Shown here one piece after another: positions 468-13,272 of a stretch of DNA of 64,000 nucleotides (the stretch's first letter is position 1; every line of letters begins with the position of its first letter). The notes under the pieces are model-generated. The model was not told where the DNA came from. It worked only from the letters and a program-made list of their open reading frames with translations, and made no database searches. The DNA comes from an uncultured Bosea sp. (GTDB lineage: Bacteria > Pseudomonadota > Alphaproteobacteria > Rhizobiales > Beijerinckiaceae): assembly GCF_945957345.1 (NCBI RefSeq), contig NZ_CAMFKW010000010.1:9231-73230 (forward strand), written 5' to 3'. Made by a program: the position numbers and the translations under genes.

Positions 468-1385
468 ATGTTGCGCACGCGCGTTCTGGGTCCGGGCGAA
501 AGACGGCCATCACGGCCGGTCCTTACGGAGTCGCTCGACCTCGCCGCGCGCCTGCCGCGCCTGATCCTGGAGGCGCGGCGCGTTTCCGCCAGCATCCATG
601 GCATCCATGGCCGCCGCCGCTCCGGCCCGGGCGAGACCTTCTGGCAATACCGCCCGCTGGTCGCCGGCGAATCGGCCTCGCGCATCGATTGGCGCCGCTC
701 CGCCCGCGACGGCCATCTCTTCGTCCGCGAGCGCGAATGGGAAGCCTCGCATTCGATCTGGCTCTGGATCGACCGCTCGCCCTCGATGGGCTTCGCCTCC
801 TCGCTGGCCATGGCCTCGAAGCTCGACCGCGCGCTCGTCGCCGGTTTCGCCCTGGCCGAGACGATGGTCGAAGGCGGCGAGCGCGTCGGCCATCTCGGGC
901 TGACGCGGGCGCTGGCGTCGCGCCGCATCGTCGAGATGCTGGCGCAGGCGATCCTTGCGGATGAACGCAACGCCTCCTCCGACCTGCCGCCTGAAGCGCC
1001 GCTGCCCCGATTGGCGGAAGCGATCATCATCACCGACGGTCTCTCGCCCGCCACGGCGCTGACCCAGCGGATCGCGACGCTGGCCTCGTCGGGCGCGCGC
1101 GGCCATGTCCTGCTGATCGCCGATCCGATCGAGGAGACCTTCCCCTTCAGCGGCCAGGCTGAATTGTTCGATCTGGAGGATGGGCTGACCTTGCGCGTCG
1201 GCGATGCCGGCGCCTGGGGCGATGAGTATCGCCAGCGCCTCGCCGCCCATCGCGAGGCGATCACCGAAGCCTGTCGCAAGGCCGGCTGGACCCTGACGCT
1301 GCATCGCACTGACCGGCCGGCCAGCGAAGCGGTACTGCGCATCGCGAGTCTCGTCGCCGCCTCGCGCAGCGCCTCGGGCTTCTGA
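468..1385 (+). CDS. DUF58 domain protein (vWA-like MoxR partner)
   Basis: Motifs GxHGRRRSGPGETFWQYRPL..GE.ASRIDWRRSAR and LFVREREWE, plus WLWIDRSPSM (DxSxS). Lies 4 bp downstream of moxR. Confidence 0.9.
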   Translation: MLRTRVLGPGERRPSRPVLTESLDLAARLPRLILEARRVSASIHGIHGRRRSGPGETFWQYRPLVAGESASRIDWRRSARDGHLFVREREWEASHSIWLWIDRSPSMGFASSLAMASKLDRALVAGFALAETMVEGGERVGHLGLTRALASRRIVEMLAQAILADERNASSDLPPEAPLPRLAEAIIITDGLSPATALTQRIATLASSGARGHVLLIADPIEETFPFSGQAELFDLEDGLTLRVGDAGAWGDEYRQRLAAHREAITEACRKAGWTLTLHRTDRPASEAVLRIASLVAASRSASGF

Positions 1386-1396
1386 GGGGAACGCCG

Positions 1397-4225
1397 ATGT
1401 TGAGCGCCCTGCCCTTCAGCTTCTCCGCCCCGCTCGCCCTCGCGGCGCTCGCTTTGCTGCCGGCGCTCTGGCTGATCCTGCGCGTAACGCCGCCGCGCCC
1501 GCGCCGGATCGATTTCCCGCCGCTCAAGATCATGGCGGATCTGATCGCCAAGCGCGAGACGCCGGCCCATACGCCCTGGTGGCTGCTCGCCCTGCGCATG
1601 GCGGTGGCCGCGCTCGCGATCCTCGCCGTCGCCGGTCCGGTCTGGAACCCGGTTCGCGATGCCGAGCCCTCGCGCGGCCCCGTCCTGCTGCTGATCGACA
1701 ACGGCTTCGGCGCCGCGACCGACTGGTCGGAGCGCGTCGCGGTCGCCGAATCGCGCATCGCTGCAGCTACCCGCGAAGGCCGCCCGGTCGCCGTGCTCGG
1801 TCTCGCCGAAGCGCCGGCCGCGATCACACTCGCCGAGCCGCGCACCGCGCTCGACCGGTTGCGCGCGCTCGCCCTGCAACCGCATGCGCCGGACCGCGCC
1901 GCTCATCTCCAGCGTATCGAGGCCTTCCTGCAAAGCTCGCCCAGTGCCGAGATCGTCTGGGTCGCCGATGGGCTGGGCGTTTCCGACGATGGCAGCTTCC
2001 TCGCCCGGCTGAAGCAGGATGCGCAGGCCCGCCGCCTCGCTGTTCATGCCGATCCAGCCACGCAACTCGCCCTCTCCGCGCCCGAAAATCTCGCGGGCGC
2101 CCTGACCGTCAAGGTGCTGCGCCCGAGCGCCAGTGCGCCAGCGACGGGCCAGGTCCGCGCGCTCGATCTCAAGGGCCTGCCGCTCGGCAACGCGCCCTTC
2201 ATCTTCGAGGGCAGCGGCCTTGAAACCACCGCGCGCCTGACCTTGCCGATCGAGGTCCGCAACGCCGTCTCGCGGTTGGAGATCATCGGCGAGCGCAGCG
2301 CCGGCGCCGTGGCGCTGCTCGACGACAGCGCCAAGCGCCGCCGCGTCGGCCTGGTCTCAGGCGCAACCGCCGATACCGCGCAGCCCCTGCTGTCACCGAC
2401 CTATTACCTCTCCCGCGCCCTCCAGCCCTTCGCCGAAATCCGCGAGCCGCGCCAAGGCTCGACCGACCCGATCGGCGAAATGCTGGCGCAGAATCTCTCC
2501 GTGCTCGTCCTTGCCGATATTGGCGCGCTCGATCGCGAAACGGCCGATAAGGTCACGAGCTTCGTCGAGCGCGGCGGCGTGCTGCTGCGTTTCGCCGGCG
2601 CTCGTCTCGCCGCCGCATCCGACGACCTGACGCCGGTGCGTTTGCGCCGCGGCGGTCGCACGCTCGGCGGCGGCCTGTCCTGGGAGACGCCGCGCAAGCT
2701 CGCGCCCTTCACCCGCGAGAGCCCCTTCTTCGGCCTGGCCATCAGCGACGACATCCGCGTCAGCCGTCAGATCCTGGCCGAGCCGGAACCGAACCTCTCC
2801 CGCAAGACCTGGGCGGCGCTTGAGGACGGCACGCCCGTCGTCACCGCCGAGCGGCGCGGCGACGGCCTCGTCGCCATGGTCCATGTCACCGCCGACACCA
2901 CCTGGTCGAACCTTCCGCTCTCGGGCCTCTTCGTCGACATGCTCCGCAAGATCGTGAACCTCGCCGGCAACGGCCCCGCCGCGGCTGAAACCCAGGGCGA
3001 CGACAAGCGCGTCGAGACTCTCTCGCCGACCCGCGTGCTCGACGGTATCGGCCAGTTCCGCTCGGCGCCCGCGACCGCCCAGCCGGTGGCGCGCAACTAT
3101 GCCGGCCGCGCGACGCTTGCTCACCCGCCTGGCCTCTACGGCCCGACCGACGGCTCGCTCGCGGTCAACGCACTGACGCCGACCGACACGCTTGCCGCGC
3201 TCGACCTCGCGAGCCTCGGCGTCGCCGTCTTGCCGATCGACGAGCCGGTCGCGCGCGATATCCGCCCGCCGCTTCTCGTGCTCGCCCTGCTCCTGCTCGT
3301 CGCCGACACGCTGGCGACGCTCTGGCTCGGCGGACGCCTCAGCTTCGCCCGCCTGCGCAAGGCGGCCGCGCCCGCCGCGATCCTGCTCGCACTCGGAGCC
3401 TCATTCGCGCTGGCGCCCGATCATGCTCGCGCCCAGCAACCCGCGCCAACCCCGCAAGCCGACACCCGCCCGCCGATCCCGCGCGCCCTGCTCGCCAATG
3501 GCGCGCAGACGCGGCTCGCCTATGTCGTGACCGGCGACAAGGCGGTCGACGACATGTCCAAGGCCGGCCTCACGGGCCTCAACACGGTGCTCGGCGCCCG
3601 CACGGCGCTGGAGCCCGGCGAGCCTGTCGGCGTCAGCGTCGAGCGCGACGAGCTCGCCTTCTTCCCGGTTCTGTACTGGCCGATCGTCGCCGGCCGGCCT
3701 CTGCCTTCGGCCGAGACGTTGCGCAAGCTCGAAGCCTATATGAAGGGCGGCGGCCTCGTGATTTTCGACACCCGCGACGCGATGAGTGCCCGCCCCGGCG
3801 GCGGCACCACGCCCGAGGGCGACCAGCTCAAACGCATGCTGCAGACGCTCGACATCCCCGAGCTGGAGCCGCTGCCGCGCGACCACGTCCTGACCAAGAC
3901 CTTCTACATCCTCGACGAGCTTGTCGGCCGCTACGATACCGGTACGACCTGGGTCGAGACGCTGCCGCCGGCCGACAGCGACGGGCGCCGCCCGGCGCGC
4001 GCCGGAGATAACGTCTCGCCCATCGTCATCACCGCCAACGACCTCGCCTCCGCCTGGGCGATCGATCGGCGCGGCGAAGGGCTGGTGCCGCTTTCGGGCG
4101 GCGATCCACGCCAGCGCGAACTGGCCCTGCGCGGCGGCATCAATCTCGTGATGTATGCGCTCACCGGCAACTACAAGGCCGATCAGGTCCATGTCCCGGC
4201 CCTGCTCGAGCGGCTGGGACAATAG
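1397..4225 (+). CDS. Membrane protein with N-terminal BatA-like double-TM domain and C-terminal DUF4159 domain
   Basis: N-terminus LALAALALLPALWLILR.TPPRPRRIDFPPL...TPWWLLALR. C-terminus FFPVLYWP, GGLVIFDTRD, HVLTKTFYIL, LALRGGINLVMYALTGNYKADQVH. Confidence 0.85.
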   Translation: MLSALPFSFSAPLALAALALLPALWLILRVTPPRPRRIDFPPLKIMADLIAKRETPAHTPWWLLALRMAVAALAILAVAGPVWNPVRDAEPSRGPVLLLIDNGFGAATDWSERVAVAESRIAAATREGRPVAVLGLAEAPAAITLAEPRTALDRLRALALQPHAPDRAAHLQRIEAFLQSSPSAEIVWVADGLGVSDDGSFLARLKQDAQARRLAVHADPATQLALSAPENLAGALTVKVLRPSASAPATGQVRALDLKGLPLGNAPFIFEGSGLETTARLTLPIEVRNAVSRLEIIGERSAGAVALLDDSAKRRRVGLVSGATADTAQPLLSPTYYLSRALQPFAEIREPRQGSTDPIGEMLAQNLSVLVLADIGALDRETADKVTSFVERGGVLLRFAGARLAAASDDLTPVRLRRGGRTLGGGLSWETPRKLAPFTRESPFFGLAISDDIRVSRQILAEPEPNLSRKTWAALEDGTPVVTAERRGDGLVAMVHVTADTTWSNLPLSGLFVDMLRKIVNLAGNGPAAAETQGDDKRVETLSPTRVLDGIGQFRSAPATAQPVARNYAGRATLAHPPGLYGPTDGSLAVNALTPTDTLAALDLASLGVAVLPIDEPVARDIRPPLLVLALLLLVADTLATLWLGGRLSFARLRKAAAPAAILLALGASFALAPDHARAQQPAPTPQADTRPPIPRALLANGAQTRLAYVVTGDKAVDDMSKAGLTGLNTVLGARTALEPGEPVGVSVERDELAFFPVLYWPIVAGRPLPSAETLRKLEAYMKGGGLVIFDTRDAMSARPGGGTTPEGDQLKRMLQTLDIPELEPLPRDHVLTKTFYILDELVGRYDTGTTWVETLPPADSDGRRPARAGDNVSPIVITANDLASAWAIDRRGEGLVPLSGGDPRQRELALRGGINLVMYALTGNYKADQVHVPALLERLGQ

Positions 4226-4227
4226 CC

Positions 4228-6318
4228 ATGTGGAGCGTCTCACTCGCCCCGCTAGTGCCCTTGCCGCTGCTGATCGGCTTGGCCGTGCTCGCGGCGCTGG
4301 CTGCCGGTGCGGCCATCGTGCTGGCCGGCCGCAGCGCCATCCTGCGCGCGCTCGCGCTCGTCGTGCTGACGACGGCGCTGGCCGATCCCTCGCTCGTCTT
4401 CGAGGATCGCGAGCCGGTCAAGGACGTGGTCTCGGTGGTGGTCGATCGCTCGGCCTCGAACCGCCTCGCCGATCGCGCGGCCCAGACCGATGCCGCCGTC
4501 GCCGAGATCGAGCGGCAATTGCGCGGCATCCCCAATATCGAGCCCCGGATCGTCGACCTGCGGGACGCCCAAGGGACCAATGACGGCACCCGCCTGTTCG
4601 AAGCGCTGTCGAACAGCCTCGCCGACGTGCCCTCCGAGCGTGTCGCCGGCGCCATCGCGATCACCGACGGCCTCGCCCATGACGCGCCAGCCAATGCCGA
4701 GGCCCTCGGCCTGCGTGCGCCGCTGCATGTCCTGACCACCGGCCGCAATGCCGAGATCGACCGCCGCATCGTGCTGGTCGATTCGCCGCGCTTCGGCATC
4801 GTCGGCAAGGACCAGATCATCCGGCTGCGCGTCGTCGACAAGGGCGGCCCCGGCCGCGCTGGCCTCACGATCCGCCGCGATGGCGAGATCATTGCCCGCC
4901 GCGAAGTCGCGACCGGCCAGACCGTACAGGTTCCCGTTCGCATCGACCGGGGCGGGCCGAACGTGGTCGAGATAGAGGCCGCTCCGCTCAACAACGAATT
5001 GACGCTGGCGAACAATCGCGCCGTCATCACCATCGAAGGCGTCCGCGACAAACTTCGCGTGCTGCTGGTCTCGGGCGAGCCGCATCCGGGCGAGCGTACC
5101 TGGCGCAATCTCCTCAAGGCCGACGCCAATGTCGACCTCGTGCATTTCACCATCCTGCGCCCGCCGGAGAAGCAGGACGGCACGCCGATCAACGAGCTCT
5201 CGCTGATCGCCTTCCCGACGCGCGAGCTGTTCCAGGTCAAGATCAAGGAATTCGACCTGATCATCTTCGACCGCTACGCCAACCAGTCGATCCTGCCGCT
5301 GCTCTATTTCGAGAATATCGTCCGCTATGTCCGCGACGGCGGCGCGCTGCTCGTCGCGGCAGGGCCCGAATATGCGGGCTCCCAGACGCTGGCGCGCACG
5401 CCGCTCGGCCAGATCCTGCCGGCCCTGCCCGACGGCAGCGTCATCGACGAGGCCTATCGCGCCGAAGTCAGCGAACCCGGCAAGCGCCACCCCGTCACCC
5501 GCGACCTGCCGGGCTCGGAAGTCTCGCCCCCGCGCTGGGGCGAGTGGCTGCGCATGGTTGGCGCCCAGGCGCGGGCTGGCAGCGCGCCGGTCATGACTGG
5601 CCCGGGAGACCGCCCCTTGCTGATGCTGGCGCGCGAGCAGAAGGGCCGCGTCGCGCTCTTCCTCTCCGACCATGCCTGGCTCTGGGCTCGCGGCTTCCGC
5701 GATGGCGGCCCCTATCTCGACCTGCTGCGCCGCCTGAGCCACTGGCTGATGAAGGAGCCGGAGCTGGAGGAAGAGGCCCTGCGCGCCACCGTCCGCGGCG
5801 CGACCGTCGAGGTCGAGCGCCAGACGCTGCGCGACAACCCCTCGCCTGTCACCATCACCGGGCCGGACGGCCAGTCGCGGACAGTGACGCTCGAAGCCGG
5901 GCGCCCCGGCCTGTTCACGGCTCGGATCCCGACCAGCGAACTCGGTCTCTACCGGCTGACCGCCGACAATCTCACCGCCTTCGCCAGCGTCGGCCCCGAG
6001 AACCCGCGCGAACTGATGGAAGTGGTCAGCGACCCCACCGCGCTTCAGGCATTGGCACAGGCGACCGGCGGCTCTTCCCGGCGCATCGGCCGCGAGAGCA
6101 GCTCAGCCGTCAACGTGCCGCGCATCGTGCCGGTGCGCTCAGGCAGCCAGTTCGCCGGCAATGACTGGATCGGCCTCAGGATCAGCGATTCCGGCATCGT
6201 GCGCGGCGTGCGCATCTCGCCGCTCTTCATCGGGCTGATCGGCCTCGCCGTGCTGTTCGGCGCACTCGTCGCCGGTTGGCTCGGCGAGAGCGGCAGGCGC
6301 CTCAGGCGTCAGAGCTGA
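4228..6318 (+). CDS. Membrane protein with vWA-like and class I glutamine-amidotransferase-like (DUF1355-type) domains
   Basis: N-terminal TM segments; VVVDRSAS MIDAS-like motif; VLLVSGEPHPGERTWRNLLKAD and DLIIFD...GGALLVAAGP segment; C-terminal TM. Last gene of the MoxR operon. Confidence 0.75.
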   Translation: MWSVSLAPLVPLPLLIGLAVLAALAAGAAIVLAGRSAILRALALVVLTTALADPSLVFEDREPVKDVVSVVVDRSASNRLADRAAQTDAAVAEIERQLRGIPNIEPRIVDLRDAQGTNDGTRLFEALSNSLADVPSERVAGAIAITDGLAHDAPANAEALGLRAPLHVLTTGRNAEIDRRIVLVDSPRFGIVGKDQIIRLRVVDKGGPGRAGLTIRRDGEIIARREVATGQTVQVPVRIDRGGPNVVEIEAAPLNNELTLANNRAVITIEGVRDKLRVLLVSGEPHPGERTWRNLLKADANVDLVHFTILRPPEKQDGTPINELSLIAFPTRELFQVKIKEFDLIIFDRYANQSILPLLYFENIVRYVRDGGALLVAAGPEYAGSQTLARTPLGQILPALPDGSVIDEAYRAEVSEPGKRHPVTRDLPGSEVSPPRWGEWLRMVGAQARAGSAPVMTGPGDRPLLMLAREQKGRVALFLSDHAWLWARGFRDGGPYLDLLRRLSHWLMKEPELEEEALRATVRGATVEVERQTLRDNPSPVTITGPDGQSRTVTLEAGRPGLFTARIPTSELGLYRLTADNLTAFASVGPENPRELMEVVSDPTALQALAQATGGSSRRIGRESSSAVNVPRIVPVRSGSQFAGNDWIGLRISDSGIVRGVRISPLFIGLIGLAVLFGALVAGWLGESGRRLRRQS

Positions 6319-6817
6319 AGCGCATCGAGGTCACCGCCCCGCTGCGCTGCTTCAGCACGCCCTCGACCAACTCCAGCGCCAGGAAGCGCGCCGGATCGGC
6401 CGGCCCCGGCAGCACGAGTTGGCCGGGCGGCAGGACCTTGAAGCCGAAGCGAGCGTAATAGGGCGCGTCCCCGATCAGCATGATCAGGTCATGCCCGGTC
6501 TCGCGTGCCGCCTCAATCGAGCGGTTCATCAGCGCAGCGCCGATGCCCCGGCCTTCGAAGGCGGGATCGACGGTCAGCGGCCCTAGCATCAGCGCCTTGT
6601 GGCCGCCGGCCAGGACCGCCGTCACTTTCACGGAGCCGACGAGGAAGGTGCCGACATGGGCTGCGAAAGACAGGGCATGATCCGGCGGCACGCCCTCGCG
6701 CAGGCGGAAGGCGGTGCGGGCGAAGCGGCCGGGGCCGAAGGCGCGCTCATGCAGGCGCTCGATCGCGGCGGCGTCCACGGGGAGCTCGTGGCGGATGGTC
6801 AGAGGCAGGGATGTCAT
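6302..6817 (-). CDS. GNAT-family N-acetyltransferase
   Basis: LGPLTVDPAFEGRGIGAALM (acetyl-CoA motif A) and LIGDAPYYARFGF. Confidence 0.9.
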   Translation of the reverse strand: MTSLPLTIRHELPVDAAAIERLHERAFGPGRFARTAFRLREGVPPDHALSFAAHVGTFLVGSVKVTAVLAGGHKALMLGPLTVDPAFEGRGIGAALMNRSIEAARETGHDLIMLIGDAPYYARFGFKVLPPGQLVLPGPADPARFLALELVEGVLKQRSGAVTSMRFSSDA

Positions 6818-6895
6818 GATGATCGACGCTTAAGCGGGAGGCAGGTCGGCTGAGCGAGGGCAGGCGCGTGCGGGCGCACTACCGGGAGGGCGCAT

Positions 6896-6943
6896 TCAGC
6901 GCGCCGGTCGTCGCAGGTCTCGCAGGCTCAGCCGGATCATCAT
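6896..6943 (-). CDS. Candidate 15-aa leader peptide MMIRLSLRDLRRPAR upstream of the GNAT
   Basis: Read by hand: ATG ATG ATC CGG CTG AGC CTG CGA GAC CTG CGA CGA CCG GCG CGC TGA. GAGG lies upstream of the start. Three of five Arg codons are CGA. A 9-bp inverted repeat links 6847-6855 with 6926-6934. Confidence 0.4.
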   Translation of the reverse strand: MMIRLSLRDLRRPAR

Positions 6944-7161
6944 GAAAGCGCCTCTACAGCATCGGGCCGGAAAGGGAAATCCGCCTTTAGGAAAAATCTG
7001 ATGCGACGCAATAGGACTCCCGCGCGGTGTCCACCCATCTCGTATCGATCTCCTGGGGAGACTTGCCGGCCTTGCCGGATTGGTCTCAACTCCGGTCTAC
7101 AAGCGGGGGAACAGGTCACGCAAACCGGAGGCGATCTCGCTCTTCGGAACGGAGGAAGCCG

Positions 7162-8700
7162 ATGTCCCGATCGAAGCCGCTCGCCCCTGCCCTTCTTCTC
7201 GCGGCCCTGTGCCTGCCGGCGCTGGCCCAGCAGCCGGCCCCGCCGAAGGAGCCGGTTCGGGACGAGTTCTTCTGGCTCGGCGAGATGAACAAGGCGAGCA
7301 CCGTCATCAACGCCGAGCAGGGCCTGCTCGATCGGGAACTGGCGCCGAAGCTCGCGCAGGGCATCGCGAGGGTGATCGAGGCCGGCAATAAGCCCGGCGC
7401 CAAACGGCCCTCCACGGTCATCACCTTCGAGCCGCTGATGATCAAGGAAGCCGGCGTCGAGGTCACGCTGATCCATGCCGGCCGCTCCAGCCAGGACATG
7501 CACGCGACCTACCGCGCCGCGATCATGCGCGACCGGCTCCTGACCCTGGCCGACCGCCTCAACCAGGCAACGCGGACGATGGTCGAGCTCGCCGCGGCGC
7601 ATCGCGACACGGTCGTACCCAACTACACCAACGGCGTCGCCGCCCAGCCCAACAGCTACGGCCACTACCTTCTCGGCCTCGTTGCCGGGCTCGATCGCGA
7701 CGCCCAGCGCATCCGCGAGACCTATGCCCGCGTCGACCGCTCGCCGATGGGCACGACCGTGCTCAACGGCACGAGCTGGCCGCTCGATCGCCAGCGCATG
7801 GCGGATTATCTCGGCTTCGCCGCCCTCGTCGACAATGCCTACGACGCCTCGCAGATCGCGGCGGCCGACCTGCCGGTCGAAGTCAGTGGCATCGTCACCG
7901 GCATCGCGCTGCATGTCGGCGGCTTCATCGAGGACGTGATGACGCAATATGCCCAGGCGCGGCCCTGGATCCTGCTGCGCGAAGGCGGCGGCACGACCGG
8001 CAGCGGCAACACCTATGTCTCCAGCGCCATGCCGCAGAAGCGCAATCCCGGCCTGCTCAACGGCACACGCGAGGACGCCTCGACCGCGCTCTCGCTGGCA
8101 ATGGGCCCCGTGTTCAGGGCGCATAACATCCCGCCCGGCATGCCCGACGCCAAGGACGCCAAGACCAACAGCGCGATGGTCGACAGCGCGGCCAGGTCAC
8201 TGCAGGGACTGGATCGCATCCTGAAGGCACTCGCCATCGATCCCGAACGCGCGCTGGAAGAGCTCAATAGCGACTGGACGGCGTCGCAGGAGCTCGCCGA
8301 CGTGCTGATGCGGAAATACAAGCTGCCCTTCCGCGCCGGCCATCATTTCGCGTCGGAAGTCGTCGACTACGCCAAGCTCAACAATATCAAGCCGACCGAT
8401 TTCCCCTATGCGCAGGCGCAGGCGATCTATCGCAAGGCGGCGACGGAGCTGGGTCTGGCGGCGACGGAGCTGCCGATGAGCGAGGCCGAGTTCCGCTCGA
8501 CACTCGATCCCGTCGCGATCGTGAAGAACCGCGCCACCTCCGGCGGCCCGCAGCCGGCCGAGATGGACCGGATGCTGGCCGAAGCGAAGCAGCGCATCGA
8601 CCGGCAGGATGCCTGGATCAAGGACCGGCGCGCCAAGATCGCGGCGGGACTGGCCAAGCTCGACGCCGATTTCGCGACGCTGGCAAAAAGCGCGAACTGA
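7162..8700 (+). CDS. Argininosuccinate lyase/fumarase superfamily C-N lyase with N-terminal signal peptide
   Basis: SSAMPQKRNP signature, HAGRSSQD and VVPNYTNGVAAQP regions. GGAGGA RBS before ATG 7162. N-terminus MSRSKPLAPALLLAALCLPALA-QQ is Sec-like. Confidence 0.8.
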   Translation: MSRSKPLAPALLLAALCLPALAQQPAPPKEPVRDEFFWLGEMNKASTVINAEQGLLDRELAPKLAQGIARVIEAGNKPGAKRPSTVITFEPLMIKEAGVEVTLIHAGRSSQDMHATYRAAIMRDRLLTLADRLNQATRTMVELAAAHRDTVVPNYTNGVAAQPNSYGHYLLGLVAGLDRDAQRIRETYARVDRSPMGTTVLNGTSWPLDRQRMADYLGFAALVDNAYDASQIAAADLPVEVSGIVTGIALHVGGFIEDVMTQYAQARPWILLREGGGTTGSGNTYVSSAMPQKRNPGLLNGTREDASTALSLAMGPVFRAHNIPPGMPDAKDAKTNSAMVDSAARSLQGLDRILKALAIDPERALEELNSDWTASQELADVLMRKYKLPFRAGHHFASEVVDYAKLNNIKPTDFPYAQAQAIYRKAATELGLAATELPMSEAEFRSTLDPVAIVKNRATSGGPQPAEMDRMLAEAKQRIDRQDAWIKDRRAKIAAGLAKLDADFATLAKSAN

Positions 8701-8713
8701 GGGGCCGGGTGCC

Positions 8714-9223
8714 TCACCACTCCGCCGCAGGCGGCTGCCCGGAGAGGATCTCCGCCAGCCGCCGCCGCGTCGCCGGCGTCGTCCCTTCCGGCAGGCGATC
8801 GAGCGGAAAAAAGCCGGCTTCCGCGATTTCACGATCCGGCTGCTTGACATGGTCAACCCGGAACTGCCGCAGCACATAGACCGCGACATGGTCGCGCCGC
8901 GAAATCCTGCGATTGAAGAAGAGCCCGTGCAGGATCGGCCGTTCGGTCGGAGCGATGCCCGCCTCCTCCGACAATTCGCGCTCCAGCGACAATTCCGCCG
9001 TCTCGCCGACCTCGACCCCGCCGCCCGGAAAATGCCAGCCGGGCACATAGGTGTGGCGGATCAGGAAGACCTCGCCGCGCTCGTTCAGGACGACGGCGCG
9101 CACGCCAAAAGTCATGCCGCGCGCGAAGCGGAAATAGGCATGCAGCAGCCGGGTCACGAGACGCTGCGCGAGAGTCCGCGGCCTGTCCGGATCGGCATTC
9201 GGCTGAGGCGTCGCTGATTGCAT
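8714..9223 (-). CDS. NUDIX hydrolase
   Basis: Nudix box GGGVEVGETAELSLERELSEEAG. Start taken at ATG 9223; the ORF track uses GTG 9244. Confidence 0.9.
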   Translation of the reverse strand: MQSATPQPNADPDRPRTLAQRLVTRLLHAYFRFARGMTFGVRAVVLNERGEVFLIRHTYVPGWHFPGGGVEVGETAELSLERELSEEAGIAPTERPILHGLFFNRRISRRDHVAVYVLRQFRVDHVKQPDREIAEAGFFPLDRLPEGTTPATRRRLAEILSGQPPAAEW

Positions 9224-9255
9224 CCGATCGATTCTCAAGGGCACGTTAATTGTCT

Positions 9256-9270
9256 ATGCAAAAAACGCAT
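9256..9270. promoter_or_regulatory. LysR-type operator-like palindrome ATGC-N7-GCAT
   Basis: ATGCAAAAAACGCAT fits T-N11-A with dyad symmetry. It lies in the AT-rich divergent region between NUDIX and the small ORF. Confidence 0.35.
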
Positions 9271-9358
9271 GACGGACCGTCAAGCACCTCAATTGTTCTG
9301 CCACAAACGCGCCCCAAATGAGGCAGATATCGCACTGCAACATCAGGACCCCAAGACG

Positions 9359-9475
9359 ATGCTTCTCTCTTTCATCATCGCCCGCTTCAAGGCCAAGCCG
9401 GCCTATGTCTGGAAGCCCGCCGTCACGCTGACCGATTCCCGCATCGTGTCGGAACTGACCGGCGCCGCCAACTAA
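9359..9475 (+). CDS. Candidate 38-aa small protein MLLSFIIARFKAKPAYVWKPAVTLTDSRIVSELTGAAN
   Basis: AGGA upstream of ATG 9359; GC-rich third positions typical of this genome; followed by the hairpin AAGGTC-TTTG-GACCTT; fills an otherwise empty 325-bp gap. Confidence 0.5.
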   Translation: MLLSFIIARFKAKPAYVWKPAVTLTDSRIVSELTGAAN

Positions 9476-9548
9476 GGTCTTTGGACCTTTCCGCAGTCCA
9501 GGCGCGCCACGGCGCGCTTGACTGACGGCCTCCTGCGGAGGCAAGCGC

Positions 9549-10445
9549 TTGAGCGTGTTCAAGCTCGCGCATCTGTCCGACCCGCATCTCGGCCCACTCG
9601 CCGGGTTTTCGCTGCATCAGCTCATCGGCAAGCGCGCGACCGGCTATGTCAATTGGCGGCGCAAGCGCAGGCATGCCCATGACATGGATATCCTGGCGCG
9701 TATCGTCGCCGACATCCATGCCCAGGGTCCAGATCACGTCGCCTGTACCGGCGATGTCGCCCATATCGGCCTGCCCGACGAATTCAAGACCGCCATCGCC
9801 TTCCTCGACACGCTTGGCCCGCGCGAAACGGTCAGCTTCGTGCCGGGCAACCACGATACCTATGCCCGCTCCTCGTTGAAGCCTCTGGCGGGCCTACTTG
9901 CACCCTGGACAGCCGATGACGAGGGCAAGGCCGGCTATCCCTGGTATCGCCGCCGCGGCCCCGTCGCTCTGATCGGCGTCAATAGTGGCGTGCCCACCCT
10001 CCCCCTGATGGCGACAGGCCGCGTCGGCAGCGAGCAGATCGCCCGGACCGAGGCGCTGCTGGACCGTGCCCGCGACGAGGGACTGATCCGCGTCGTGCTG
10101 ATCCATCATCCCCCCTATGTCGGCGGCGCCAAGCGCGGCCGCGAATTGGTCGATGCCGCCTCCTTCGAGGCGATGCTGAAGCGCAAGGGCGCGGACCTCG
10201 TCCTGCACGGCCATAATCACAGTTTCTCGCTGGCCTGGCGGCCTGGTCTCAGCCGCGACGTGCCGATCGTCGGCGTGCCCTCGGCCTCGATCGGCCCTCG
10301 CGGCCATGGCGAGCTTGGCACCTGGCACCTGTTCCACATCGAAGGCGCTGCCGATGCACCGCGGATCACGCTGGAACAGCGCGGCTTCGAGCCGGACGGC
10401 ACCGTCATCCATCGCCAGGAGATCATTCTGACGAAAGCGACCTGA
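9549..10445 (+). CDS. Metallophosphoesterase (Icc/CpdA-like calcineurin fold)
   Basis: Motifs HLSDPH, CTGDV, VPGNHD, LIHHPP and LHGHNH. Confidence 0.9.
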   Translation: MSVFKLAHLSDPHLGPLAGFSLHQLIGKRATGYVNWRRKRRHAHDMDILARIVADIHAQGPDHVACTGDVAHIGLPDEFKTAIAFLDTLGPRETVSFVPGNHDTYARSSLKPLAGLLAPWTADDEGKAGYPWYRRRGPVALIGVNSGVPTLPLMATGRVGSEQIARTEALLDRARDEGLIRVVLIHHPPYVGGAKRGRELVDAASFEAMLKRKGADLVLHGHNHSFSLAWRPGLSRDVPIVGVPSASIGPRGHGELGTWHLFHIEGAADAPRITLEQRGFEPDGTVIHRQEIILTKAT

Positions 10446-10448
10446 AGG

Positions 10449-10610
10449 GTGTCATCCCGTGCGCGCTGCAGCGTGCAACGCTGCGGCGCAGACACGGGAC
10501 CGCGCGACGACAGAGGCTCCCGCCGTCGCACACCCAACAGTGTGCCCTTTTCTGAGAACGGTCCCGTGTCTGCGGAGCCGCACTGCGTGCCGCAGCGCGC
10601 ACGGGAACAC
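10449..10610. repeat. Palindromic intergenic REP/RIME-like element between convergent genes
   Basis: Arms of about 53 bp at 10449-10502 and 10559-10610 are imperfect reverse complements (TCCCGTGCGCGCTGC / GCAGCGCGCACGGGA; CGCAGACACGGGACCG / CGGTCCCGTGTCTGCG). Confidence 0.75.
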
Positions 10611-10617
10611 GCGGTCC

Positions 10618-11364
10618 TCAGACGCAGCGGCCACCGTCGACGGCGAGCACCGAGCCCGTCACCATGTCGGCCTCGTCCGAGCACAGGAACAGAGCGGCAT
10701 TGGCGATGTCCTGCGGCGTCGAGAACCGGCCCCACGGGATCGAAGCCGTGAACTGCTCGCGCCGCTCGGGCGTGTCCTCGCCCATGAAGGTGGCGAGCAG
10801 CGGCGTCTCGCCGGCGACCGGCGCGATCGCGTTAACGCGGATCTTGTCCGGCGCGAGCTCGACCGCCATCGACTGCGAGATCAGGTTCGCCGCGCCCTTC
10901 GAGCCGTTGTACCAGGTCAGGCCCGGACGCGGACGCACGCCGGCCGTCGAGCCGATGTTCAGGATCACGCCGCCGCCATGCTGCCGGAAATGCGGCACGG
11001 TCGCGCGTGCCATCAGATAGATCGACTTCACGTTCACCGCGAAGATCCGGTCGAACTCCTCCTCGGTCACCTCGATCATCGGCTTGTTGCGATGGGTGGT
11101 GCCGGCATTGTTCACGACGATGTCGAGCCGCCCGACCTTGGCCAGGATCTTCTCGACCGCCTTGTCGACACTCTTGGCCTTGCCGACATCGCAGGTCACG
11201 GCAAAGGCCTTGCGGCCGATCGCCTTGGCGGCTTCCTTGGCCTTGTCGCCGTTGATGTCCAGCACCGCGACGCGCGCGCCCTCCCGCACGAAGGTCTCGG
11301 CGATGCCGAAGCCGAACCCCTGCGCCGCGCCGGTCACCAGCGCCGTCTTGCCTTTGAGTCTCAT
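10618..11364 (-). CDS. Short-chain dehydrogenase/reductase (SDR)
   Basis: TGAAQGFG, VNNAG, YNGSK (YxxxK) and IRVNAIAP. GAGGGA RBS before ATG 11364. Confidence 0.92.
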   Translation of the reverse strand: MRLKGKTALVTGAAQGFGFGIAETFVREGARVAVLDINGDKAKEAAKAIGRKAFAVTCDVGKAKSVDKAVEKILAKVGRLDIVVNNAGTTHRNKPMIEVTEEEFDRIFAVNVKSIYLMARATVPHFRQHGGGVILNIGSTAGVRPRPGLTWYNGSKGAANLISQSMAVELAPDKIRVNAIAPVAGETPLLATFMGEDTPERREQFTASIPWGRFSTPQDIANAALFLCSDEADMVTGSVLAVDGGRCV

Positions 11365-11466
11365 GGTCGTCCCTCGCGGTCTTGTGGCCACGATGTTTGA
11401 AACGATTGAGCACAGCGGTAAATGCGCTTTTGCGCGCGGGCGGATGCGGAAATGGGATGGCGGGCC

Positions 11467-13272
11467 TTAAGCCCCGATCTCCTCGCGCAGCATCTCGAGC
11501 TCCAGCCAGCGCTCCTCGGCCTCGCCGATCTCGCGTGCCACCTCTTCGAGCCGCGCCGTCGCCTTAGCGAAGAGTTTTGGATCGCGCGTGTAGAGATCGC
11601 CGGCCACCGCCGTGTTGAGTTTCGCCGCCTCGGCCTGCAACGTCTCGATCTTCTTCGGCAGTGTCTCCAGCGCATGCTTCTCGTTGAAGGAGAGCTTGCG
11701 TTTGGACGCGGACGCGGCGGGCACTGCGGCAGCCTTGGGCTCGGCAGGCACCGCCTTCTCGATCGGCCGTGCCTTGGCCCCGACGCCGCGCCCGCGCTGC
11801 GCCAGCATGTCGGAATAGCCGCCGGCGAACTCGGTCCAGACGCCGTCGCCATCCGAGATCAGCACCGAGGAGACGACGCGGTCGATGAAGTCGCGGTCAT
11901 GGCTGACCAGCAGGACGGTGCCCTGATAGTCGGCCAGCAGTTCCTGCAGCAGGTCGAGCGTCTCGAGATCGAGATCGTTGGTCGGCTCGTCGAGCACCAG
12001 GAGGTTCGAGGGCTTGGCCAGCGCGCGAGCCAGCATCAATCGCCCGCGCTCGCCGCCCGAGAGCGCGCCGACCGGCGTGCCGCGCTGGATCGGCTGGAAC
12101 AGGAAGTCCTTCATGTAGGAGATGACATGGCGCGGCTGGCCGCCGACCATGACCTGGTCCGAGCCGCCACCGGTCAGCGCATCGCCGAGCGGCGTCTCCG
12201 GATCGAGGCTCTCGCGGCGCTGGTCGAGCGTCACCATCTCCAGCGCCGTGCCGAGCTTCACCTTGCCGGAATCGGGCTTGAGCGCCCCGGTTAGCAGGTT
12301 GATCAACGTGGTCTTGCCGGCGCCGTTCGGCCCGACGATGCCGATCCGGTCGCCGCGCGCGACGCGCAGCGACAGGTTCTTGACGATCGTGTTGTCGCCA
12401 TAGGCCTTGGCGACGTCGATCGCGTCGATGACGAGCTTGCCGGAGCTCTGCGCCTCGCTGGCTTCCAGCCGGACATTGCCTTGCGCGGCGCGCGCGGTAC
12501 GGCGCTGGTCGCGCAGCGCATGCAGCTCGCCCAGGCGGCGCTGGTTACGAGTCCGGCGGGCGCTGACGCCATAGCGCAGCCAGTCCTCCTCCCGGGCGAT
12601 CTTGCGGTCGAGCTTGTGGCGGTCGAGTTCCTCCTGCGCCAGCACCTCGTCACGCCAGGCCTCGAACTCGCCGAAACCTCGCTCCGCCCGCCTGGTCACG
12701 CCGCGATCGAGCCAGATCGTCGCGCGCGACAGCGAGGTCAGGAAGCGTCTGTCGTGGCTGATCAGCACCATGGCCGAGCGCAGCGATTTCAGCTCCTGCT
12801 CCAGCCACTCGATGACCGGCAGGTCGAGATGGTTGGTCGGCTCGTCCAGCAGCAGGATGTCCGGCTCCGGCGCCAGCACGCGGGCCAGTGCCGCGCGACG
12901 ACCCTCGCCACCCGACATCGAAGCCGGGTTCTCCTGCCCGGTCAGGCCGAGCTCGGTCAGCAGGTATTGCGCGCGATAGGCATCGTCGCCCGGTCCCAAG
13001 CCGGCCTCGACATAGGCGAGCGCCGTGTCGAACCCGGTGAAATCCGGCTCCTGCGGCAGATAGCGGATGGTCGCGCCCGGTTGGACGAAGCGCTCGGCAT
13101 GATCGGGCTCCACGATCCCCGCGGCGATCTTGAGCAAAGTCGACTTGCCCGAACCGTTGCGGCCGACGAGGCAGACGCGCTCCCCGGCCGAAACCGCGAT
13201 CTCGGCAGCTTCAAGCAGCGGCTGTCCGCCGAAGGTGAGCGCGACGTCGCGCAGATGCAGCAAGGGAGCCAT
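11467..13272 (-). CDS. uup: ABC-F family ATP-binding protein (Uup-like)
   Basis: Two ABC cassettes (GRNGSGKS, MSGGE, LLLDEPTNHLD; GPNGAGKT, LSGGE, LVLDEPTNDLD), no TM domain, and a C-terminal KLSFNEKHALE coiled coil. Confidence 0.85.
   Translation of the reverse strand: MAPLLHLRDVALTFGGQPLLEAAEIAVSAGERVCLVGRNGSGKSTLLKIAAGIVEPDHAERFVQPGATIRYLPQEPDFTGFDTALAYVEAGLGPGDDAYRAQYLLTELGLTGQENPASMSGGEGRRAALARVLAPEPDILLLDEPTNHLDLPVIEWLEQELKSLRSAMVLISHDRRFLTSLSRATIWLDRGVTRRAERGFGEFEAWRDEVLAQEELDRHKLDRKIAREEDWLRYGVSARRTRNQRRLGELHALRDQRRTARAAQGNVRLEASEAQSSGKLVIDAIDVAKAYGDNTIVKNLSLRVARGDRIGIVGPNGAGKTTLINLLTGALKPDSGKVKLGTALEMVTLDQRRESLDPETPLGDALTGGGSDQVMVGGQPRHVISYMKDFLFQPIQRGTPVGALSGGERGRLMLARALAKPSNLLVLDEPTNDLDLETLDLLQELLADYQGTVLLVSHDRDFIDRVVSSVLISDGDGVWTEFAGGYSDMLAQRGRGVGAKARPIEKAVPAEPKAAAVPAASASKRKLSFNEKHALETLPKKIETLQAEAAKLNTAVAGDLYTRDPKLFAKATARLEEVAREIGEAEERWLELEMLREEIGA

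Follow-up and report, generated by a model that had tools for sequence, protein, structure and literature searches.

Does a gene whose relatives are all named argininosuccinate lyase encode an enzyme of arginine biosynthesis and, if not, what might its product do, and in which cellular compartment? The question arises from a gene at positions 7162-8700 (+) of a 64,000-nucleotide stretch of DNA from an uncultured Bosea sp. (NCBI RefSeq assembly GCF_945957345.1, contig NZ_CAMFKW010000010.1, positions 9,231 to 73,230 of the forward strand), hereafter called the window. The gene is a clean open reading frame (ORF) of 512 codons for a 512-residue protein, and the databases (NCBI, UniRef, JGI) name all homologues argininosuccinate lyase (ASL, or ArgH). 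The aspartase/fumarase superfamily is described in textbooks as cytoplasmic. The Bosea protein, a member of that superfamily by its Lyase_1 score and its catalytic-loop signature, begins with a predicted Sec signal peptide. On balance, we consider it probable, by no means assured, that the gene encodes a stand-alone, Sec-exported periplasmic beta-elimination lyase, which would release fumarate from a small aspartate-type substrate and which belongs to an ASL-like branch of the superfamily without being ArgH. The elements of the gene to which the argument refers are the following:

7151..7156, + strand: GGAGGA ribosome-binding site, read from the sequence, 5 nt before the ATG start codon
7162..7227, + strand: predicted signal peptide of the Sec type (type I), residues 1-22, the expected cleavage site lying between ALA (ending in Ala22) and QQ, from inspection of the n-, h- and c-regions and of homologues
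7228..7257, + strand: variable Pro/Ala/Gln-rich linker, residues 23-32, of ~3 to ~55 residues among homologues
7258..8700, + strand: mature ASL-like lyase domain, residues 33-512 plus the stop codon, with Lyase_1, ASL_C2 and a long C-terminal helix (Pfam, PDB match, AlphaFold2)
7480..7497, + strand: conserved region 1, GRSSQD, residues 107-112 (HAGRSSQD against HTGRSRND in ArgH), by alignment
7624..7650, + strand: conserved region 2, YTNGVAAQP, residues 155-163 (NYTNGVAAQP against GYTHLQRAQP in ASL), by alignment
7993..8007, + strand: five-residue insertion TTGSG directly before the SS loop, from homologue alignments
8020..8061, + strand: SS loop and following turn, SSAMPQKRNPGLLN, by alignment, with residue roles from PMC6973171 and PMC13411527
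8122..8154, + strand: clade-specific motif HNIPPGMPDAK (HNxxxGMxDxK), kept across the RSRQD/RSSQD clade, where ASL reads KGLPLAYNKD

Pfam assigns the protein to Lyase_1 with 92.3 bits (gathering score 27) and to ASL_C2 with 37 bits, and the superfamily signature GSSxxPxKxN is present as VSSAMPQKRN, with Val286 in place of the leading Gly as the sole difference. The ArgH equivalog model TIGR00838 gives 180.8 bits, well short of its cutoff of 279.5, and the protein likewise stays below the cutoff of every NCBIfam model. The nominal top match, XcbC (NF052535), reaches 184.9 bits against a cutoff of 575, and the nitrosuccinate lyase model reaches 23 bits. The sequence identity is ~28% to E. coli ASL (over 334 residues) and ~26% to ethylenediaminedisuccinate (EDDS) lyase.

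We compared the motifs residue by residue in an alignment to the E. coli and Thermus thermophilus ASLs and to EDDS lyase. One half of the active site is retained. In characterised members of the superfamily, the succinyl or fumarate moiety is bound by a Thr in region 2, a Ser in region 1, both SS-loop serines and the Lys and Asn of KxN (PMC6973171, PMC13411527). The SS loop of the Bosea protein, SSAMPQKRN (residues 287-295), is intact, with predicted roles for Ser287 as the catalytic base and for Lys293 and Asn295, and this loop, Thr156, Lys293 and Asn295 are invariant or nearly so among homologues at 33-100% overall identity. The protein is likely to be an active enzyme in view of this invariance.

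The half that faces the leaving group is remodelled. Asn157 (7630-7632) stands in place of the general-acid His162 of ASL and is invariant in every family alignment. The turn following the SS loop reads NPGLLN where ASL reads NPDALE, so that the partner of the His, Glu296, has become Asn300 (8059-8061), invariant in close homologues, and Gly297 occupies the site of Asp293 in ASL and of Asp290 in EDDS lyase. In region 1, Arg115 and Asn116 of ArgH are replaced by Ser110 and Gln111, and all six residues of GRSSQD are invariant in a 14-sequence alignment of close homologues. The stretch SSQD resembles the SSND and STND of fumarases and aspartases. The motif HNIPPGMPDAK sits at the 320s loop of ASL, corresponding to the Tyr320 region of EDDS lyase, which forms the leaving-group pocket. 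The lost His normally acts together with a Glu, as a pair, and donates the proton to the leaving group (PMC13411527). EDDS lyase functions without it, with Ser280 as the base (PMC6973171).

A search of 1.84 billion cluster representatives returned 383 at E below 1e-30. We placed the Bosea protein in a neighbour-joining tree of 84 sequences over 319 shared core columns, a distance-based tree without bootstrap support. The ASLs of E. coli and T. thermophilus form a clade of their own and take places 78-81 when the 84 are ordered by distance from the Bosea protein, some 77 of the 84 being closer to it than these canonical ASLs, and EDDS lyase is the farthest of all. The substitutions are nested in the tree. 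The Bosea-type family (RSSQD with Asn at both positions 157 and 300) lies inside a group with RSRQD and Asn, which lies inside a His-less clade of 27 representatives with N, W, L, G or Q at position 157 and mostly N at 300 (one member is a His/Glu exception). This clade in turn lies inside a clade of 45 representatives with RSRQD that retains the His together with Glu or Asp, outside of which are found sequences with RSRND, His and Glu. Among the representatives with His at position 157, 52 of 53 carry Glu or Asp at 300, as against one of the 28 with another residue. We rejected the reading of this covariation as independent events, the tree mapping approximately one loss of the His-Glu pair. 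No characterised member of the Bosea-type family or of the wider His-less clade was found in the PDB, NCBIfam or the searchable literature.

The N-terminus has the layout of a Sec signal peptide. Residues 1-22, MSRSKPLAPALLLAALCLPALA followed by QQ, comprise a basic n-region, MSRSK, a hydrophobic core of ~16 residues, PLAPALLLAALCLP, and the cleavage motif A-L-A, with small residues at -3 and -1 by rule-based inspection. Neither a twin-arginine motif nor a lipobox is present in the signal peptide, and a lipoprotein was ruled out, as Cys17 follows a Leu and is not conserved. Among more than 100 homologues, the N-terminal 20-30 residues vary freely, yet the start is always basic, the core is hydrophobic and free of charges, and a small-x-small motif precedes a Gln. 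After the linker, nearly invariant sequence begins abruptly with the mature start RDEFFWLGE. Equivalent signal peptides, alike in properties and not in sequence, occur in nearly all full-length homologues from alphaproteobacteria, betaproteobacteria and actinobacteria. Since the sequence diverges while the properties are kept, this stretch is presumably a working signal peptide and not a hydrophobic stretch arising by chance. We infer the export and signal cleavage of the Bosea protein from such sequence rules and conservation.

Export is not universal in the family. Several versions from gut Sutterellaceae have no signal peptide, as even the longest reading frame available to them opens just a few residues ahead of the conserved domain. 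Signal-peptide-less forms comprise five encoded beside a DcuC gene (L062, L070, L072, L075 and L079) as well as L055 and L063-L067, all from gut taxa and mostly from Sutterellaceae. A study of the twin-arginine translocation (Tat) system in Achromobacter xylosoxidans detected three proteins annotated as argininosuccinate lyase in the periplasm, each with a predicted Tat signal, and discussed them as arginine-biosynthesis enzymes (PMC11533796). That proteome shows that ASL-like proteins can be periplasmic and have so far been overlooked (PMC11533796). Because the Achromobacter orthologue of the Bosea protein has no RR motif, the three Tat proteins probably represent related subfamilies within a wider exported ASL-like clade and not the Bosea-type family itself.

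Taken together, the score below the TIGR00838 cutoff, a place in the tree apart from the canonical ASLs, the absence of both the His-Glu pair and Arg115, and the export signal make it almost certain, as far as sequences can tell, that the Bosea protein is not the ArgH of arginine biosynthesis. The original prediction had reached the same view from a Sec-like signal peptide in place of the WGGRF start, an intact SS loop, RSSQD in place of RSRND and YTN in place of YTH, and had proposed phylogeny against ArgH as a check. The signal peptide reading gains from the three-region layout and its conservation among homologues, the alignment bears out the motif differences, and the tree agrees. Its mention of Thr-Asn at this position in EDDS lyase proved wrong, that enzyme reading YTQRKEAQP, i.e., Thr-Gln, and it had missed that the Glu partner of the His is Asn as well (NPGLLN in place of NPDxxE).

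The closest homologues are from Bosea (92-99% identity), and the family is unusually well conserved beyond this genus, with 70-74% identity between Bosea and Achromobacter, Bordetella or Cupriavidus and 50-70% to relatives from Comamonadaceae, Pseudonocardia and gut Sutterellaceae. In a scan with one genome per species, the family appeared in Alphaproteobacteria (Bosea, Phyllobacterium, Aureimonas, Amaricoccus, Inquilinus and Roseomonas-type genera), Betaproteobacteria (Alcaligenaceae, Burkholderiaceae, Oxalobacteraceae and Comamonadaceae) and Salinisphaera, and at 50-57% identity in the gut taxa Sutterella, Parasutterella, Mesosutterella, Dialister and Phascolarctobacterium. GRSSQD and YTNGVAAQP are found in all family members and SSAMPQKRNPG in nearly all. 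By these alignments, the Bosea-type family is a widespread, strongly conserved and uniformly misannotated branch of a well-known superfamily, in what appears to be an unexpected compartment. Two homologues from Pseudonocardia (L039 and L042) are 66% identical to the Bosea protein and have a signal-like N-terminus, a sign that the gene may have passed between phyla by horizontal transfer and that its product may be secreted by a Gram-positive host.

We looked for recurring gene associations among the relatives. The 136 immediate neighbours at 74 loci include genes for LysR regulators (16), DcuC carriers (5), GntR/FCD regulators (4), OprD porins (3), SDF symporters (3), MFS transporters (3) and Porin_4 proteins (3), and no second enzyme recurs as a partner among them. 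Genes for DctM of tripartite ATP-independent periplasmic (TRAP) transporters lie nearby in several loci. TctC/Bug genes are common near the loci but abundant in those genomes anyway. The close homologues from Achromobacter, Cupriavidus and Agaricicola share no conserved neighbourhood and give no functional clue for the Bosea gene. Around the genes from Mesosutterella, Dakarella and a Sutterellaceae metagenome-assembled genome, the Pfam matches, to an amino-acid permease, an AAT-family protein and a DUF6198 protein, gave no interpretable picture.

Two associations come from more distant relatives. In the five signal-peptide-less Sutterellaceae loci named above, a DcuC gene follows 0-63 nt downstream on the same strand, and these carriers score 324-340 bits against the DcuC_1 cutoff of 100. 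A divergent LysR gene lies upstream in L072, L075 and L079, while the contigs of L062 and L070 end too near the gene to tell. The E. coli aspA-dcuA module pairs aspartase with a C4-dicarboxylate carrier, and the cytoplasmic Sutterellaceae members resemble it in having a gene for a putative fumarate-forming lyase beside that for a Dcu-type carrier. The likeness is one of organisation and not of homology, with aspartase and DcuA on one side and the ASL-like branch and DcuC on the other, and the Bosea protein differs further in its predicted export and in having no adjacent carrier gene. The second association involves a sister subfamily from Pseudomonas with 44-48% identity, RSRQD, YTNGVQA(Q/M)P and a signal peptide. 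In three Pseudomonas species (L068, L081, L083; ~6500-11800) its gene directly follows an OprD porin gene and adjoins one for a DctA-like SDF symporter, past which lies a LysR gene, a layout that reads as an outer-membrane channel, a periplasmic enzyme and inner-membrane dicarboxylate uptake in sequence. The mature N-terminus of this sister subfamily carries a conserved Cys-rich stretch, C(K/R)TTEECAAQA, which is absent from the Bosea family. The pattern is complementary: genes for cytoplasmic enzymes adjoin a carrier gene, and those for exported enzymes have no dedicated carrier or a product-type carrier. It is consistent with the one-step conversion of a small C4-dicarboxylate-type compound into products that need no further dedicated enzymes.

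One further neighbourhood stands apart. On a metagenome contig (L006, 1019-3717), the gene for a homologue with a signal peptide and 63% identity (P0135) shares 4 nt with the end of a CoA_transf_3 gene, an apparent operon pairing a cytoplasmic family III CoA-transferase with an exported enzyme.

These observations allow us to outline how the enzyme might work. After Sec export, the protein would fold and presumably assemble into a tetramer in the periplasm, which a cofactor-free superfamily makes feasible. The succinyl (C4-dicarboxylate) moiety of the substrate would be bound by Thr156, Ser109/Gln111, Ser288, Lys293 and Asn295, and Ser287 of the SS loop would abstract the C-beta proton. We expect this residue to initiate a beta-elimination because the family keeps, without variation, the residues by which characterised superfamily members bind the succinyl group. 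The products would be fumarate (or a close analogue) and a small leaving group that does without protonation by a His-Glu relay, because both partners are Asn. The remodelled leaving-group side and the DcuC association together suggest that this group is small and can depart without being protonated by the enzyme. Our best guess is ammonia or a small amine, already protonated, from aspartate or an N-substituted aspartate. The fumarate might then enter through the general dicarboxylate transporters of the cell, and the gene would constitute a one-enzyme, separately regulated catabolic or scavenging module.

Several points weigh against this scheme. We infer catalytic activity, the fumarate product, the substrate and the leaving group alike. 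The transporter links were seen in relatives that share 44-57% identity; the neighbours of the Bosea gene itself are uninformative on function. Adjacency to DcuC fits the import of a substrate as well as the handling of a product. As the tree maps approximately one loss event, the His-Glu pair was lost together, which does not amount to many independent correlations. The AlphaFold2 monomer model shows the all-helical ASL fold with only moderate confidence (predicted local distance difference test, pLDDT, 68), and the loops of the active site are modelled poorly. In a superfamily of homotetramers whose active sites are each built from three subunits, such low confidence fits loops at a subunit interface and proves nothing. 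Finally, the H162N substitution in duck delta-2 crystallin, in work by Vallee and co-workers from 1999 (PDB 1DCN), is reported to abolish activity with the substrate still bound, so that Asn at the His162 site could mean a loss of activity.

The main alternative, which we consider unlikely, retains the beta-elimination and replaces nitrogen as the leaving atom. Phosphate, nitrite, sulfite, a thiol (as from S-(2-succino)cysteine) or an alkoxide would depart, which would be new chemistry in the ASL-like branch, and the disappearance of the leaving-group-protonating relay agrees with it. The top NCBIfam match, XcbC, is a cytoplasmic protein that aligns nearly end to end with the Bosea protein (residues 42-500 against 42-486 of 495), but the score is far under the XcbC cutoff and barely over that of the ArgH model, and no xcb genes lie beside the Bosea gene, the neighbours there encoding GNAT, NUDIX, metallophosphoesterase and SDR proteins. 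XcbC is the phosphosulfolactate phosphate-lyase of bacterial coenzyme M synthesis, an ASL homologue that eliminates a non-amine group (PMC9457059). Nitrite-eliminating CreD also naturally lacks the general-acid His (Leu170) and has an SS loop without the leading Gly, and SSxMPxKRNP without a preceding Gly, as in V-SSAMPQKRNP of the Bosea protein, has been proposed as the loop signature of nitrating enzymes (PMC13411527). Against this, KRNP is found as well in relatives that retain the His, the nitrosuccinate lyase model gives just 23 bits, CreD itself is very distant (E 3e-5) and belongs to a different superfamily branch, so that its nitrite-binding fingerprint (E49/H118/D125/H253/R341) would not be anticipated in the Bosea protein, and EDDS lyase cleaves C-N bonds in spite of being His-less (PMC6973171). 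The original prediction had proposed a periplasmic C-N lyase. A periplasmic lyase of this superfamily is indeed very probable from the sequence evidence, and C-N chemistry stays at plausible, since CreD, a His-less member, eliminates nitrite.

That prediction had also favoured an aminopolycarboxylate chelator of the EDDS or iminodisuccinate type, a metallophore or an opine as the substrate to be degraded, which now appears improbable. An argument for it is EDDS lyase, a cytoplasmic enzyme and the closest solved structure (E ~1e-37, 26% identity, residues 40-494 against 44-480 of the chain). Both proteins have a long (~500 residues) ASL-like architecture with a C-terminal helix, a catalytic Ser in the SS loop (Ser280 and Ser287, respectively) and another residue in place of the canonical His (Gln and Asn, respectively). 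EDDS lyase (PDB 6G3D-I and 6RX8, identified via PMC6973171) differs in retaining RSRND and the Glu of NPDSLE, as well as the amine-pocket Asp290 and the Tyr320 loop, in place of which the Bosea protein has a Gly and another conserved motif, and it is the most distant sequence in the tree. The loss of these pocket residues and the presence of family members in gut anaerobes, among Sutterellaceae, Dialister and Phascolarctobacterium, make chelators and opines fit poorly. Neither TonB receptors, nor opine or metallophore transport systems of the ATP-binding cassette (ABC) type, nor chelator genes recur beside the gene in the 74 contexts, where LysR and GntR regulators, C4-dicarboxylate carriers (DcuC, DctA-like SDF, TRAP DctM) and porins recur instead. 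In Agaricicola, genes for a LysR regulator, a TRAP transporter and an MmgE/PrpD-family protein lie just downstream, a faint echo of iminodisuccinate catabolism, whose epimerase belongs to that family; this layout was seen once only. It is very improbable that the protein is exported but catalytically dead, with the ASL fold serving a binding or structural role as in delta-1 crystallin. Glu296 and Arg115 are lost as well as the His, and 1DCN is among the PDB matches, but region 1, both SS-loop serines, Thr156, Lys293 and Asn295 are invariant or nearly so down to 33% identity, which is hard to explain without catalysis, and His-less superfamily members are active enzymes (PMC6973171, PMC13411527). 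Hardly any credence is left for a true, second ArgH, perhaps scavenging external argininosuccinate. The database names and the Lyase_1 and ASL_C2 architecture speak for it, and the protein shares with ArgH and the delta-crystallins (1TJ7, 2E9F, 1K7W, 1DCN) the fold, SSxMPQKxNP and the Thr of YT(H/N). Its N-terminus lacks the WGGRF start, a signal peptide and a C-terminal helix are added, the score is below the TIGR00838 cutoff with the sequence outside the canonical ASL clade, His162, Glu296, Arg115 and Asp293 are lost, the 320s loop, which in ASL lines the arginine pocket, is different, and there are no arg genes nearby.

If the proposed periplasmic lyase is real, such a branch, conserved and periplasmic, would extend fumarate-forming chemistry to a new compartment. 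It might also account for the way in which asaccharolytic bacteria such as Bosea, Bordetella, Achromobacter and Sutterella obtain carbon or nitrogen from an environmental or host compound. Metabolic reconstructions that credit these genomes with a second ArgH are almost certainly wrong. The natural loss of the whole His-Glu relay bears on whether the superfamily needs protonation of the leaving group, and as His-less EDDS lyase is a valuable hydroamination biocatalyst, a stable secreted variant would be of practical interest. We also raise, tentatively and as a rather doubtful extension, that there may be a large unrecognised extracytoplasmic group within the superfamily, which would pre-process compounds between porins and dicarboxylate transporters, and in which the Asn/Asn subclade would catalyse an undescribed reaction with a new leaving group or natural substrate class. 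A Sec or Tat signal is present in roughly half of the RSRQD/RSSQD clade, and fusions to zinc hydrolase domains of the M14 or AstE type occur in some of its members. The fused relatives have 880-930 residues, with an N-terminal signal peptide, a Peptidase_M14 or AstE-AspA-type zinc hydrolase and a C-terminal ASL-like domain with His and Asp (P0159, P0162, P0180 and P0196, and also P0188, P0202, P0210 and P0222). The NCBIfam model PRK02186 says argininosuccinate lyase for them, and from its domains the fusion looks like an exported two-step enzyme.

Within the window, the ribosome-binding site at 7151-7156 favours the ATG at 7162 as the start over an in-frame GTG at 7027. The frame is open over 7027-7161 and would add an Arg-rich extension of 45 residues (…NRRRSRSSERRKP), which we judged probably non-coding, a longer Tat-like precursor being the less likely reading, because the ribosome-binding site precedes the ATG and the homologues of other genera begin at the signal peptide. 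This upstream extension is translatable in two further Bosea loci and absent from other genera. The TTG(S/G)G insertion before the SS loop occurs in some Bosea lineages (forms of 512-514 residues) and is absent from other Bosea at 92% identity (507 residues) and from all other genera.

A scan of 6700-9600 against Rfam at a permissive threshold gave sub-threshold chance matches only and no riboswitch, and the promoter and terminator scan gave nothing upstream of the lyase gene. A search for public sequencing runs yielded DNA and metagenome data only. No second Lyase_1 gene lies close to the locus. The lyase gene is monocistronic, with a divergent gene for a GNAT acetyltransferase (6302-6817) upstream on the opposite strand and a convergent gene for a NUDIX hydrolase (8714-9244) downstream. 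Beyond these two genes, one side holds a DUF58/BatA/DUF4159 cluster, and the other holds genes for metallophosphoesterase, SDR, ABC-F, acyltransferase and glucokinase proteins. The cluster consists of three genes in a row at 468-6318 (+), encoding a DUF58 protein, a 942-residue BatA_N/DUF4159 membrane protein and a 696-residue protein without a Pfam match, and has the layout of a Bat/aerotolerance-like cluster directly upstream of the GNAT gene.

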